Positions 54,839-60,191 of a DNA stretch of 64,000 nucleotides are shown piece after piece (positions within the stretch are counted from its first letter, which is position 1; every line of letters begins with the position of its first letter). Source of the stretch: a phage; the sequence record OR896157.1; one strand, given 5' to 3'. The translations under genes and the position numbers were made by a program. The notes beneath the pieces were generated by a model. The model was not told the DNA's origin. It searched no databases and worked only from the letters and a program-made list of their open reading frames with translations.

Positions 54839-57094
54839 TTAAAGCTTACATGCAGAACAATCTTCGGCTTTTGGTTTTTCGATTTCGAAATCATCGTTAC
54901 CGGAACCATCACGAGTGTTATGATAGTACAATGTCTTACCACCAAAGTACCAGAAGTAAAGCAAGTCGTCCATCATAACAGACATTGGCACTTTACCTTT
55001 CTCATAATTCTGAGGGTCATAGTAAGTATTAGCTGATGCAGATTGGCATACCCACTTCAACATAATAGCTACTTGAGTCAGATAAGGCTTGTTACCCTGC
55101 TTAGCAAGTTTCCATGCATAATCATAGAGGTCAGCATTCAGTTCAACATTCGGAACTACTTGGTTGAAGCTTCCTTCTTTAGACTCTTTAATAGAGACTG
55201 GACCTCGTGGCGGCTCAATACCGTTTGTGCTGTTGGAAACCTGGGAGGAGGACTCACATGGCATGAGTGCGGACAATGTACTGTTACGGATGCCATATTG
55301 CTTGAGTTCTGCACGGAGTGCTTCCCAGTCACAAACGTAATTCGGGGCCGCGAGCTGGTCAATTCTTTTATTGTACCAGTCGATAGGTAATTCGCCTCGA
55401 GACCAACGAGTGTCTTTATAATACTCGCAAGGTCCTTTTTCTTTTGCAAGTTTAATTGATGCTTTGATAAGTGCATATTGCAGCCTTTCAAACAGTTCGT
55501 GAGTCAAGTCATTTGCATCAGCATATGTAGCAAAGTTATCTGCTAACCAAGCAGCGTAGTTTGTTACACCAACACCCAATGCTCGACGTTTAAGAGCTTT
55601 CAAAGCTTCTTTAACCGGATAACCTTGATAACTCAAGAGGTTGTCGAGTGCTCGGACTTGGACTTCTGCGAGCTCGTTAATAGTTTCTTGGTCTTGCCAA
55701 TCGAAGTTGCCGAGCACGAACGCAGACAACGTACACAGCGCAATTTCTGCGTCTTCTGAGTAGACGTCTTTAGTAGGTAACGCAATTTCTGCGCAGAGGT
55801 TCGATTGCTTAATCGTAGCCACATCACGAATAAAAGGACCATAATTACCAACGTTATCTACGAAGTAAGGGTAAATTCGAGCAGTGCCTGAACGCTCAGT
55901 TAAGAATAACTCAATCAGTTCACGAGCTTTGACACGCTTCTTACGAACATCTGGATTCTTTTCAAGAGCTTCATATTGTTCACGGAACGCAGCAGCATCT
56001 TTGAAATAGTTCTCATAAAGGCGACCAGCATCAATGTCCGGAGAGAACAGAGTGATGTAATCATCTTTAATCAGACGTTCAAACATCAGGTCGTTGATTT
56101 GAACACCGTAGTCCAAGTGACGAATTCGGTTTTCATCTACGCCTTTGTTGTTCTTGAGTACGAGGAGGTTTTCAACTTCCAAGTGCCAGATTGGATAGTA
56201 CAATGTCGCCGCGCCACCACGAACTCCGCCTTGGGAACAAGATTTAACTGCTGTTTGGATGTGTTTCCAGAAAGGAATAACTCCAGTATGCTTGACTTCT
56301 CCGAAGCCGATTTTTGAACCTTCTGCACGAATCATACCTGCGTTAATGCCGATACCAGCACGTTTAGAGATGTACTCTACAATTGATTCAGCAGATTTGT
56401 TAATTGATTTCAGTGAATCACCAGCTTCAATAACAACGCAAGAGCTGAATTGACGAGTAGGAGTACGAGCACCTGCCATAATAGGAGTAGGCAGAGAAAT
56501 TTTCTTAGTTGACACGGCATCATAAAAACGAATAGTGTTCACCAAACGATTTTCACCATCGTCCTGATGCAGAGTCATACCGATGAGCATGAATGCAAAC
56601 TGAGGAGTTTCGATGATTTGACCGGTGCTACGGTCTTTGACCAGGTATTTTTCAATGAGCTGCATTGTGCCAGCATACGTCATTTCAAAATCGCGATCAT
56701 GAACAATTTTACTTTCAAGCAGAGCAATTTCTTCAGCAGACCATTTGGCAAGAATTTCTTTGTCATATTTGTTGTGATTAACACCAAATGAAATCTGGTC
56801 AATAAACGAACGAGGTTCAAACTGCCCATAAACTTGCTTACGGAGATTGAACATCGCCAGATTACTTGCTACATATTGATAATCTGGTTCTTCAATTGAA
56901 ATCATTGAAGCTGCAACTTTAGTAGCTGCGCGTTGAATGTCATAAGTTGTCATTCCATCTTGTAGATGCGGAACGATAGCTTGATATAGCTCATATGGGT
57001 CAACTCGGGTGTTTTCACAACCCCATTCCAGAACTTTGATAAGTTTTTCTGGAGTAAATTCCTGAGAGGTACCACTGGACTTAATTACTTTCAT
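54839..57094 (-). CDS. nrdA: aerobic ribonucleotide reductase large subunit
   Basis: 751 aa vs 754 in T4 NrdA; C-terminal CxxC. Confidence 0.96.
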   Translation of the reverse strand: MKVIKSSGTSQEFTPEKLIKVLEWGCENTRVDPYELYQAIVPHLQDGMTTYDIQRAATKVAASMISIEEPDYQYVASNLAMFNLRKQVYGQFEPRSFIDQISFGVNHNKYDKEILAKWSAEEIALLESKIVHDRDFEMTYAGTMQLIEKYLVKDRSTGQIIETPQFAFMLIGMTLHQDDGENRLVNTIRFYDAVSTKKISLPTPIMAGARTPTRQFSSCVVIEAGDSLKSINKSAESIVEYISKRAGIGINAGMIRAEGSKIGFGEVKHTGVIPFWKHIQTAVKSCSQGGVRGGAATLYYPIWHLEVENLLVLKNNKGVDENRIRHLDYGVQINDLMFERLIKDDYITLFSPDIDAGRLYENYFKDAAAFREQYEALEKNPDVRKKRVKARELIELFLTERSGTARIYPYFVDNVGNYGPFIRDVATIKQSNLCAEIALPTKDVYSEDAEIALCTLSAFVLGNFDWQDQETINELAEVQVRALDNLLSYQGYPVKEALKALKRRALGVGVTNYAAWLADNFATYADANDLTHELFERLQYALIKASIKLAKEKGPCEYYKDTRWSRGELPIDWYNKRIDQLAAPNYVCDWEALRAELKQYGIRNSTLSALMPCESSSQVSNSTNGIEPPRGPVSIKESKEGSFNQVVPNVELNADLYDYAWKLAKQGNKPYLTQVAIMLKWVCQSASANTYYDPQNYEKGKVPMSVMMDDLLYFWYFGGKTLYYHNTRDGSGNDDFEIEKPKAEDCSACKL

Positions 57095-57392
57095 GCAAAT
57101 CCTCTAGCGTAAATGTGTCTTTGAATAGTCTGTTTACTATATGAGCTATTATATCACCATGGCAAGCTTTAGGTTTACAAGTGCATCCTAATCTCATTCC
57201 ACGGAGGGTCTCCAAGTGCTCACGTTTTATTTCACCACTCCTAATACGCTTAATGAAGTCCTCTTTAAAGGCTTCAATGGCAGCCTCCCGGCTGCCAGCA
57301 TTTTTACCAACGTCATTACCCCACATTGTACCTCGTTGGATATTAACGTCGAAATCGGAATGGTATTTATTAACCACTCGACAAGCTCTCAT
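57081..57392 (-). CDS. hypothetical protein with CxC-x4-CHGD motif (nrdA.1-like position)
   Basis: 103-aa ORF; motif RLGCTCKPKACHGDII. Confidence 0.55.
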   Translation of the reverse strand: MRACRVVNKYHSDFDVNIQRGTMWGNDVGKNAGSREAAIEAFKEDFIKRIRSGEIKREHLETLRGMRLGCTCKPKACHGDIIAHIVNRLFKDTFTLEDLHESN

Positions 57393-57622
57393 TTAACTTC
57401 CACAATAAACCATGTATCATGAATTAATTGATTAGATTCAAGTCCGAATTCTTCAAAACCGTGCGCTTTTTCGTATGCATGGACAACGTTACGAACATAG
57501 AGACGCGCTCCACGAACTTGAATAATTGAACCGACCTTTGGAATTTCAGAATCACGGATGTTATAAACTTCTGCGATAGGGTCTTCTTCATTATTTTGAA
57601 TTACAATTCTAAGATGTGGCAT
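57389..57622 (-). CDS. hypothetical protein (nrdA.2-like position)
   Basis: 77-aa ORF with ATGA overlap. Confidence 0.5.
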   Translation of the reverse strand: MPHLRIVIQNNEEDPIAEVYNIRDSEIPKVGSIIQVRGARLYVRNVVHAYEKAHGFEEFGLESNQLIHDTWFIVEVK

Positions 57623-57810
57623 TATGCTTTACTCACAATAACAACGCGTTCAGTAGATTCACCAACAATTTCAATGTGATGAGCCAGAACTATATGAAAA
57701 TAGCCATTAATCATAATAGAAGAGTTTAATTTGAAGTCAGCATCGCACAGTTGCTCATCAGTTTGAGCATAAACGATACTTCCCAAAGCATTTGTAAATT
57801 TAGTAATCAT
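57622..57810 (-). CDS. hypothetical protein
   Basis: 62-aa ORF with TAATG overlap upstream and ATGA overlap with td. Confidence 0.45.
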   Translation of the reverse strand: MITKFTNALGSIVYAQTDEQLCDADFKLNSSIMINGYFHIVLAHHIEIVGESTERVVIVSKA

Positions 57811-58667
57811 ACAGCCATTTTTCCTTTGATTGTTGGGTGACTTTCATAGTTAACTAACTTGAAGTCTTCGATAACAGCAAATCGGTTTATCCACTTAAGC
57901 TGAGATGAAGTTTGCCAGCGCTCAAACTCAATTGGAAAATCAATTTCAAGCTCACAGAGTTCTTTTGGCTCTCGACGAAGAATTTCTTCGCACTGCTCAA
58001 TATGATTTGAGTAGATGTGAGTGTTGCCCCCAGTAAATATCAAATGACCAGGTTTTAAGCCAGTCATTTTAGCTACGATATGAATCAAAGCAGCATATGA
58101 TGCAATATTGAATGGTAGACCAAGGAATACATCTACCGACCTCTGGTACCACTGGAGGTCCAGAAACCCATTGCGTACGTTAAACTGATATATCATATGG
58201 CATGGTGGAAGCGCCATCTTAGGGATGTCTAGAGGGTTCCAGGCAGTCACAATTTGACGACGGTCATTAGGCAGTTCTTTAATTCGGTCAATAACCAAAG
58301 TCAATTGGTCAACACCCATAAAGTCTCGCCATTGCTTACCGTAGACAGGACCAAGCTCACCATCAACGTATCCCATTGAACGAGCTTGATTTTCGTAATT
58401 GTCGTCCCAGACAGTTTTACCATTTGTCGGAGAACCATGCTGACGAAGACGTAAATCGTTTACATTTGTTGAACCAGATAGGAACCACAAAAGTTCTGCA
58501 ATACATGCTTTCCAGGCAAGCTTCTTAGTAGTTACTGCTGGAAAACCTTGTTGCAAATCAAAACGAAGCTGAGTGCCAAACACAGCACAAGTGCCAGTTC
58601 CTGTGCGGTCATCAGTCACGTAACCTTCATCAAAGATATGCTGAATTAGCTGTTGATATTGTTTCAT
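57807..58667 (-). CDS. td: thymidylate synthase, uninterrupted
   Basis: 286 aa, same as T4 Td; continuous ORF, no intron or intron-encoded endonuclease. Confidence 0.96.
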   Translation of the reverse strand: MKQYQQLIQHIFDEGYVTDDRTGTGTCAVFGTQLRFDLQQGFPAVTTKKLAWKACIAELLWFLSGSTNVNDLRLRQHGSPTNGKTVWDDNYENQARSMGYVDGELGPVYGKQWRDFMGVDQLTLVIDRIKELPNDRRQIVTAWNPLDIPKMALPPCHMIYQFNVRNGFLDLQWYQRSVDVFLGLPFNIASYAALIHIVAKMTGLKPGHLIFTGGNTHIYSNHIEQCEEILRREPKELCELEIDFPIEFERWQTSSQLKWINRFAVIEDFKLVNYESHPTIKGKMAV

Positions 58668-59014
58668 TATTTTCCTGGGCGAAAGAAGATTTCACGGCCT
58701 TGTTTATCAAACCGACCAAAAACAGTCATCGTATTACCAGTGATGACTACATTACCTTTAGCAATATGATGAATTGTTTGACGAGTGTTCATCATAATTT
58801 TAACACCTAAGCCACGAGCAATTCTGATGCCTTCATCAGCTGCCCAAGTGTCATTGATTTCAACATCAATGCGATACAATCCATGTGGAATTGTTTTGTA
58901 TAACTCAGGCTTTCGCTTATATTGCTCAATAGTAGGAGCATTACCCTCGATTACTAAAGCCCAGTTTTTCTGGGTCTCTTCTTGTAACAGAGTCAAATGA
59001 TTATTGATTTTCAT
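58667..59014 (-). CDS. hypothetical protein, paralogue B of a tandem pair inserted between frd and td
   Basis: 115 aa from internal ATG; shares LTLLQEETQKNW, HGLYRIDVEIND and NVVITGNTMTVFGRFDKQGREIFFRP blocks with the upstream ORF. Confidence 0.5.
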   Translation of the reverse strand: MKINNHLTLLQEETQKNWALVIEGNAPTIEQYKRKPELYKTIPHGLYRIDVEINDTWAADEGIRIARGLGVKIMMNTRQTIHHIAKGNVVITGNTMTVFGRFDKQGREIFFRPGK

Positions 59015-59321
59015 ATTGTTCTTCCAACGGATTGAAGAATACTTGACTTCCGCTTTTAAAGAAGTCTCCAATCATTGTAACATAGCCATTTGAAAAGCTA
59101 ACATTACCATTCATTGAAGCAAGTAGCACTGATTTCATTGAACGACAAAGTTCAATTGGGTTATTTCCATTGCTATCATAGATAGTGTACTCTGCATTAC
59201 GATACTCTCTGATATCTTCAATCGCAAAGGATAACTCATACACACCGTGAACTTTATTCCAGTTCTTCCATTTCTTTTGAGTTTTATAGGTCTCTAACAG
59301 ACGAAGATTATACCCTTTCAT
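59001..59321 (-). CDS. hypothetical protein, paralogue A of a tandem pair inserted between frd and td
   Basis: 106-aa ORF with GGAG Shine-Dalgarno; start overlaps frd 3' end; LRLLETYKTQKKW, HGVYELSFAIED, NVSFSNGYVTMIGDFFKSGSQVFFNP. Confidence 0.55.
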   Translation of the reverse strand: MKGYNLRLLETYKTQKKWKNWNKVHGVYELSFAIEDIREYRNAEYTIYDSNGNNPIELCRSMKSVLLASMNGNVSFSNGYVTMIGDFFKSGSQVFFNPLEEQYENQ

Positions 59322-59901
59322 AGACAGTCTCCGTTAATGAAGTTAGTTCATCACAACGAACCCAAGACGTTTCTACCATTTGAAACGCATTTTCCCATGC
59401 CGGATATGAAATAAAGCTCATGTCCAGAGTGACATCAGAGTTAACCCGATGTTTCTTCTGTATTGACGTTTGGATAATACGGTCTGCGTATGGCTGAGCC
59501 GTCTCTAGAATCCTCTTGCCACCAATAACAGAATAGTTATCATTCGGAAGAAGACGAATACGAATGCCACCGTGATTTGTGTAGTAGTTATTGGTTTTGT
59601 CAAGGAAAGCTTTAAATTCTTCTGGACTCATGTAGCCGTCGGGAAATAAACCATCTTTTGCTTGAGCAAATGGACGATTCATATCTTGTACAACAATGCA
59701 CTTGCGGCCTTTAAGGGCAGTAGGCATGCTCATCCAAGTTTTTGCACCCATGATAACGACAGTGTCTTTGGTACGTTTTGCAAAGTTCTGCATATCACGC
59801 TTGATATGACCCCACGGCAATCCGTCTTTAAGACCAAAAGCATATTCGTTTTGACCATTAACTGTCTTGGTTCCACAATAAGCATATACAAGTTGTAGCA
59901 T
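59308..59901 (-). CDS. frd: dihydrofolate reductase
   Basis: Start MLQLVYAYCGTKTVNGQNEYAFGLKDGLPWG (T4 Frd [31 protein letters not shown]); AGGAAA Shine-Dalgarno; 197 aa. Confidence 0.92.
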   Translation of the reverse strand: MLQLVYAYCGTKTVNGQNEYAFGLKDGLPWGHIKRDMQNFAKRTKDTVVIMGAKTWMSMPTALKGRKCIVVQDMNRPFAQAKDGLFPDGYMSPEEFKAFLDKTNNYYTNHGGIRIRLLPNDNYSVIGGKRILETAQPYADRIIQTSIQKKHRVNSDVTLDMSFISYPAWENAFQMVETSWVRCDELTSLTETVYERV

Positions 59902-60113
59902 TATGATTTCCTGCATTTAATGAGAGCATTGTAAAGACGGCGCGTAAATTCAATATTAGCTTCACGACCAATGCGAGATAAAAAGTTTTTAGTCATATCA
60001 TCATATGACTGTTTTAGCCCAGTCGTAATATTATCAACGGCTTCATTATAACCGTCTTTACGAGCTTTGGCTTTAGCTTCTTCAAACTCTTCAAGAGTCA
60101 TTGTGATTTGCAT
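59901..60113 (-). CDS. hypothetical early protein (frd.1-like position)
   Basis: 70 aa from internal ATG with GAGG Shine-Dalgarno; TAATG overlap with frd. Confidence 0.45.
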   Translation of the reverse strand: MQITMTLEEFEEAKAKARKDGYNEAVDNITTGLKQSYDDMTKNFLSRIGREANIEFTRRLYNALIKCRKS

Positions 60114-60191
60114 TAACCTTGCCTCATTCCGCATTTGATACAACGACCACCAGCAAACATCAGATTAGTCCCGCAATACTTGCATTCCCAA

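Follow-up and report, generated by a model that had tools for sequence, protein, structure and literature searches.

The window analysed here is the whole 64,000-nucleotide stretch of phage DNA in record OR896157.1. It belongs to a Karamvirus (a CC31-like phage), and its frd-td segment is 97% identical to that of Enterobacter phage vB_EclM-UFV01 and 93.5% identical to that of phage CC31 (Karamvirus, Tevenvirinae). On the minus strand the order of genes is frd, ORF A, ORF B, td. The upstream neighbour, frd (59308..59901), encodes dihydrofolate reductase and is annotated in both CC31 and UFV01, and the downstream neighbour, td (57807..58667), encodes a thymidylate synthase of 286 aa and has no intron. 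Between them lie ORF A (59001..59321; 106 aa) and ORF B (58667..59014; 115 aa), with the coordinates and frames given in the initial annotation. They are, respectively, an S-type (short) and an L-type (long) member of PHROG 1928 and correspond to CC31p239 and CC31p238, which, like the UFV01 counterparts, are recorded as hypothetical proteins. ORF A is identical in protein, and ORF B 99% identical, to deposited Karamvirus genes, and the exact proteins are named 'hypothetical' or 'uncharacterized' throughout public collections.

Each ORF overlaps its neighbours, as had been observed from the letters of the sequence. The frd stop codon (TAA, 59310-59308) marks the end of a 14-nt overlap between frd and ORF A (59308..59321), ORF A and ORF B overlap by a further 14 nt (59001..59014), in an arrangement likewise annotated in five Karamvirus records, and the ORF B stop and td start share 1 nt within the string TAATG (58665..58669); all three overlaps were read from the sequence. 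The length of ORF B is counted from a conserved ATG at 59014 (MKINNH...), which is the start common to homologues and to most database annotations, and upstream of this ATG no stop interrupts the frame as far as a TTG at 59071, which would give 134 aa. The conserved frd start, MLQLVY, lies at 59901, and this frame is open as far as an ATG at 59916. The longer version of frd from 59916 would begin MQEIIMLQLVY and would be overlapped by the ORF upstream of frd (59901..60143); homologues and annotations use 59901. ORF A is preceded by a GGAG Shine-Dalgarno sequence at 59332-59329, 7 nt ahead of its ATG, ORF B by a GGAAG Shine-Dalgarno-like motif at 59025-59021 and td by an AGGA motif at 58676-58673, all of them 5-7 nt upstream of the respective starts. 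An Rfam scan of the region gave no match, and promoter-like sites occurred at no more than chance level. Terminator-like sites numbered 8, against 3.3 expected, and none stands at the boundaries between frd, ORF A, ORF B and td. These four genes appear to share one polycistronic early unit, with ORF A and ORF B co-expressed alongside frd and td.

Two further small ORFs of the minus strand are found downstream. A 62-aa ORF (phrog_12548; 57622..57810) overlaps the td stop by 4 nt and is labelled 'dTMP thymidylate synthase' in one record. The td gene of CC31 is annotated as 348 aa, its frame continuing into this 62-aa ORF (L001 2823-3869; ending ...IKGKNGCM, with no stop), a feature that reflects either a genuine fusion or frameshift of CC31 or an artefact of sequencing or annotation. 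Between td and nrdA, a 103-aa ORF (57081..57392), whose product is an nrdA.1-like DUF4326 protein (Pfam E=1.5e-20), shares 14 nt with the start of nrdA and adds a further conserved small gene to the same operon.

When the window was compared with five Karamviruses, dN/dS was 0.01-0.15 for ORF A and 0.03-0.09 for ORF B, alongside 0.03-0.08 for frd and 0.03-0.07 for td, and the frames of ORF A and ORF B were intact in all genomes examined. Judged by these sequence comparisons, together with the Shine-Dalgarno motifs and start/stop overlaps, both are real genes that are constrained as strongly as the flanking enzymes. The region does not have a uniform history of descent among Karamviruses: Frd is 98.5% identical to that of vB_EclM-UFV01 and only 78.5% identical to that of vB_VIPECLOM01, ORF A is 99% identical to its vB_VIPECLOM01 homologue, and dS against UFV01 is 0.35 for ORF A, several-fold above the values for ORF B (0.09) and td (0.06). 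These values describe a mosaic region and suggest recombination breakpoints near the frd/ORF A boundary. A record from another host, PP212877.1 ('Aeromonas phage PS49', host Aeromonas hydrophila), has 93% DNA identity to the Karamvirus region; this unexpected likeness may stem from a host mislabel or from an unusually broad host range.

Two divergent members of one protein family

The two proteins had been described as paralogous on the strength of shared peptide strings, all of which are present in ORF A and ORF B, and this description is borne out. In a pairwise BLASTP comparison they align over 74 aa at 26% identity (E=3e-7), and the Smith-Waterman score of 71 (shuffle mean 25.6, sd 4.4, z=10.2) was reached by 0 of 2000 shuffles. 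Moreover, both proteins match the phrog_1928 profile, ORF A with E=1.6e-30 over profile positions 2-125 of 126 and ORF B with E=8.9e-39 over positions 3-120. No DNA-level repeat linking ORF A and ORF B was found, nor was a further copy of the family elsewhere in the window. The overlap of the two frames by 14 nt could be taken as a trace of one frameshifted gene, an alternative that the initial annotation itself had named. Nevertheless, since each ORF is near full-length on the profile, they are complete domains and not halves of such a gene; each also aligns end to end with single-copy homologues, and both frames are intact, with low dN/dS, in all Karamviruses. A frameshift remnant is excluded on these grounds.

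The family is known at the sequence level, its genes being already deposited and grouped in PHROG 1928, and ORF A and ORF B do not differ from its other members, with which they share the profile over its full length and the genomic slot. As the initial annotation supposed, it has no assigned function; PHROG 1928 carries no functional assignment, no Pfam entry and no solved structure. Its motifs are a KxW near the N-terminus, HGxY, GN and a C-terminal G-x-F-x-K-x-G...F-x-P, and both ORFs carry all of them. Across 57 sequences, W18, G85, K89 and G91 (ORF A numbering) are invariant, and L8, G26 and Y28 of the HGxY motif, G72, F87 and F96 are nearly so. Pfam and NCBIfam scans of the two ORFs yielded only sub-threshold matches (DUF7743, E=0.026; PapC_N, E=0.084), and a Pfam scan of the 57 family members revealed no recurring family. 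Profile searches of PDB sequences returned only matches with E>0.1, among them TagH, SepF and a transthyretin-like HIUase ancestor, which were rejected as chance.

AlphaFold models were obtained with pLDDT 94.8 for ORF A and 80 for ORF B, and the order of secondary-structure elements in these predictions fits a five-stranded OB barrel with a helix between strands 3 and 4. On the predicted models, each protein is a small binding-type fold without a catalytic motif. OB-fold domains (SSB, PriB, RPA, YgiW/BOF and the anticodon-binding domains of aminoacyl-tRNA synthetases) are among the closest known systems. One reading is that the proteins bind nucleic acid through an OB fold. They might, for example, be small factors that bind ssDNA or RNA and regulate the translation or stability of frd-td-nrd mRNA or act at replication forks. 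No sequence or profile similarity to the SSB family was detected in Pfam, NCBIfam or PDB sequences for either ORF or for the 57 members, and this specific role is considered rather improbable.

Within PHROG 1928, two subfamilies can be distinguished. In the alignment of 57 sequences, the conserved KxW and HGxY are separated by about 6 residues in the S form, and the L form has an insert of 25-44 residues at this point, with a conserved PTI-x-EY; in ORF B, an insert of about 20 aa (PTIEQYKRKPELY) follows the conserved KxW. A neighbour-joining tree of 57 family representatives places S and L almost cleanly apart, with one exception. Profiles built for the subfamilies assign each locus copy to an unambiguous class, ORF A scoring 148.7 bits with the S-profile vs 65.5 bits with the L-profile, and ORF B 139.9 bits with the L-profile vs 42.2 bits with the S-profile. 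In many proteins of the S type, the C-terminus is a short tail of acidic and aromatic residues, LEEQYENQ or LEEQF for instance. ORF A has a pI of 6.6 and ORF B of 9.7. Charge complementarity between S and L was considered and rejected, as there is no systematic charge difference; on average both subfamilies are mildly basic, with a median pI of ~8.7.

A variable slot in T4-like phages

In phage T4, frd and td overlap by 4 nt with no gene between them, and the initial annotation was right that the two genes are adjacent there. The family is likewise missing from RB69 and from Aeromonas phage AhFM11 (Biquartavirus), in which frd and td overlap directly. Among their relatives, PHROG 1928 occupies the frd-td slot in at least eight named Tevenvirinae genera, in 1-3 copies. 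The slot is filled in Karamvirus, Jiaodavirus, Moonvirus and Tegunavirus, in the Tequatrovirus phages T2, T6, RB14, RB32 and RB3, in phages of Salmonella, Serratia, Pectobacterium, Edwardsiella, Erwinia and Kosakonia, and on divergent metagenomic T4-like contigs. Annotated loci include the frd-X-td arrangement of the Jiaodavirus Mineola, with one copy, and those of the Moonvirus Moon, with two, and the Tegunavirus phiR1-RT, with one (g236).

A tblastn search of 50,697 phage records matched ORF B in 126 records and ORF A in 256, and many of the matches adjoin an annotated frd. The records are those of T4-like phages of Enterobacter, Klebsiella, Salmonella, Citrobacter, Serratia and Yersinia, with Erwinia, Cronobacter, Edwardsiella, Pectobacterium and Kosakonia as further hosts. 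When 1.84 billion representative proteins were searched exhaustively with an HMMER profile, only 48 clusters were returned, all of 95-139 aa except for one 49-aa fragment and one outlier of 2169 aa, and there was no credible fusion to another domain among them. The outlier (P0056) is an OTU protease/helicase/HA-repeat protein with five weak partial matches (E=3.4e-5) and was judged spurious as a family fusion. Four of the most distant clusters were looked up, and in all four the gene is flanked by those for DHFR and TS on a T4-like contig. Cluster P0061 is the frd-td ORF of T2, RB14, RB32, RB3 and RB51 (RB32ORF229c, with further examples in RB14 and RB51) and is also present in several hundred other Tequatroviruses of E. 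coli and Shigella (580 records in all); T6 has an insert of equal size at its frd-td junction. A pattern-seeded scan of 185,579 genomes, one per species, revealed no relatives in bacteria or archaea. A scan of IMG/VR with degenerate patterns contributed no more than 6 further loci, the divergence of the family being too great for such patterns. Across the collections searched, the family occurs only in T4-like phages that infect Enterobacterales.

Even a single genus, Tequatrovirus, is polymorphic at this slot. Among 515 records matching the T4 junction with a 401-nt junction probe, three forms were distinguished. In a few records the junction is empty, as in T4; in most it is longer by ~416 nt and holds a PHROG 1928 member (T2, T6, RB32); and in the third form it is longer by ~206 nt and holds an unrelated basic ORF of 68 aa (phrog_9550). 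The third form is exemplified by Shigella phage Sf21 (L025 504-710). The flanks of the three forms are ~90-100% identical over the probe. Close relatives in which frd and td are near-identical lack the family or carry another ORF, which shows it to be dispensable; as Tequatroviruses without it keep similar frd and td, neither Frd nor Td depends on it. The empty junction of T4 is the exception, a minority state among relatives, and the statement that genes had been 'inserted' between frd and td does not stand for a slot that is filled across many genera.

This polymorphism, close to the td intron and I-TevI, could point to a mobile element, and in one BASEL phage record the T2-type homologue is indeed labelled 'putative homing endonuclease'. 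No member supports the label, as no nuclease domain of the GIY-YIG, HNH, LAGLIDADG or PD-(D/E)xK type, nor any other, was found by Pfam in the 57 members, and the proteins are only 95-139 aa long. That the pair represents a mobile element or homing-endonuclease gene, or else the remnants of one frameshifted gene, is scarcely credible.

Copy number and subfamily vary between phages, and the order of the copies is conserved. The order frd-S-L-td was found in every two-copy locus checked, namely nine Karamvirus loci, the window, Moon, Pectobacterium phage PM2 and a Klebsiella phage. Among single-copy phages, Mineola and the T2 type have S alone, and phiR1-RT, Marfa and a metagenomic lineage have L alone. 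Three tandem members in the order L-S-S (148, 106 and 95 aa) are present on the metagenomic T4-like contig SRR28387184 (L012 3541-4835). On this contig, the largest family expansion seen, they are followed by an unrelated 76-aa ORF (phrog_8520), and all lie between the DHFR and TS genes.

The adjacency and homology of ORF A and ORF B, with no gene at this position in T4, invite the reading that a gene newly inserted in this phage lineage has recently undergone a local tandem duplication, and the initial annotation did describe a local duplication. The tree and the locus order refute this: S and L separate across many genera, the S-then-L order is common to Karamvirus, Moonvirus, Pectobacterium phage PM2 and a Klebsiella phage, the slot is filled in hundreds of phages, and the two copies are only 26% identical in protein with no shared DNA repeat. 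A recent insertion and duplication is most improbable. The split of S and L across genera, the fixed order and the lack of a DNA repeat together indicate that the duplication took place before these genera diverged. ORF A and ORF B almost certainly encode two proteins that are translated separately, one of the S type and one of the L type within PHROG 1928, a family that is an old resident of the frd-td slot.

Possible roles of the family

Searches of the literature by locus tag, accession and PHROG id, on frd and td in general, and in a review of T4 genomes found nothing on the family, and no interaction data for these proteins were found there. The proposals that follow draw on the position of the genes, their variability and the predicted fold.

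One proposal links the family with thymidylate metabolism. On this view, the S and L proteins would serve the thymidylate cycle or a T4-type dNTP-synthetase complex as accessory subunits or adaptors; they would bind Frd and/or Td, or link both to the replisome, and translational coupling would hold them in a fixed ratio with Frd and Td. Their role would resemble that of the junction segment in the bifunctional DHFR-TS enzymes of protozoa and plants, in which a junction region joins DHFR and TS. The comparison is no more than an analogy: the order DHFR, linker, TS along the coding sequence is the same, and the middle element of the frd-td locus is, unlike that linker, a separate folded protein that is sometimes absent. 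In favour of an adaptor, the family lies between the DHFR and TS genes at every locus examined, including very divergent metagenomic contigs, its starts and stops overlap those of frd and td, it is under purifying selection equal to theirs, and its predicted fold is of a small binding type with no catalytic motif. Nevertheless, position is weak evidence of function here because fixed order and start/stop overlaps are general in the T4-like early region, and all neighbouring small ORFs in the window overlap too. In addition, the slot is polymorphic, with a copy number of 0-3 and copies of varying type (S, L, S+L, L+S+S), which weakens the argument from position to function, and Tequatroviruses whose flanks are ~90-100% identical over the 401-nt probe lack the family or carry an unrelated ORF. 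An adaptor role is therefore doubtful, although somewhat less so than the specific nucleic-acid-binding role described above.

Another parallel is provided by other conserved small early ORFs of the T4 gene 32-nrdA region, frd.1/DUF5417, frd.2, frd.3 and nrdA.1/DUF4326. These are likewise small, co-transcribed and translationally coupled, and likewise keep a fixed position across genera while being dispensable in some phages. PHROG 1928 differs from them in its unrelated sequence, in being missing from T4 and in forming tandem paralogues.

The reading tentatively preferred is that the family comprises OB-like binding proteins without enzymatic activity, early accessory factors that the phage can do without and that probably act on a host component or nucleic acid. 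We infer that each protein would be a non-enzymatic beta-barrel with OB-like topology, made up of one domain of about 12-13 kDa and acting by binding a partner. The S and L proteins would be made early, from one polycistronic unit in which their translation is coupled to that of Frd and Td, and would belong with the dispensable accessory factors that fill variable slots between conserved T4 early genes. The likeliest target would be a host component or nucleic acid, rather than a step of thymidylate catalysis. Where S and L occur in tandem they would be diverged binders, not obligate partners, and phages that carry just one of the two types speak against an obligate S-L pair or heterodimer.

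A bolder extension holds that the family is a new functional class of small OB-like phage proteins with a role in T2 and T6 that is lacking in T4, as either a counter-defence or host-takeover factor or a free-standing DHFR-thymidylate synthase tether within the dNTP-synthetase complex. T2, T4 and T6 differ in their sensitivity to bacterial defence systems. A PADLOC scan of both ORFs gave no matches, in a collection that holds defence and not anti-defence proteins. This extension is an unlikely one. If it were true, a counter-defence factor would contribute to the differences in defence-system sensitivity among T2, T4 and T6, and either version would supply a function for a gene of hundreds of T-even-type phages, which would have been overlooked because the model phage T4 has lost it.

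Beyond the existing grouping of these genes, the present analysis adds that the empty T4 junction is the exception among relatives and that the family contains two old subfamilies, with the S-then-L order fixed in two-copy loci. It further adds that the slot varies even inside Tequatrovirus, that constraint equals that on the flanking enzymes, and that the proteins are phage-restricted, single-domain and never fused, with a confident structure model and no close solved relative. As it stands, PHROG 1928 is an ordinary conserved hypothetical family of modest functional interest, one of many conserved hypothetical early genes unless a function is found. Its presence in T2 and T6 but not in T4 opens that function to simple genetic tests, and a functional result would explain a widely conserved T-even gene.
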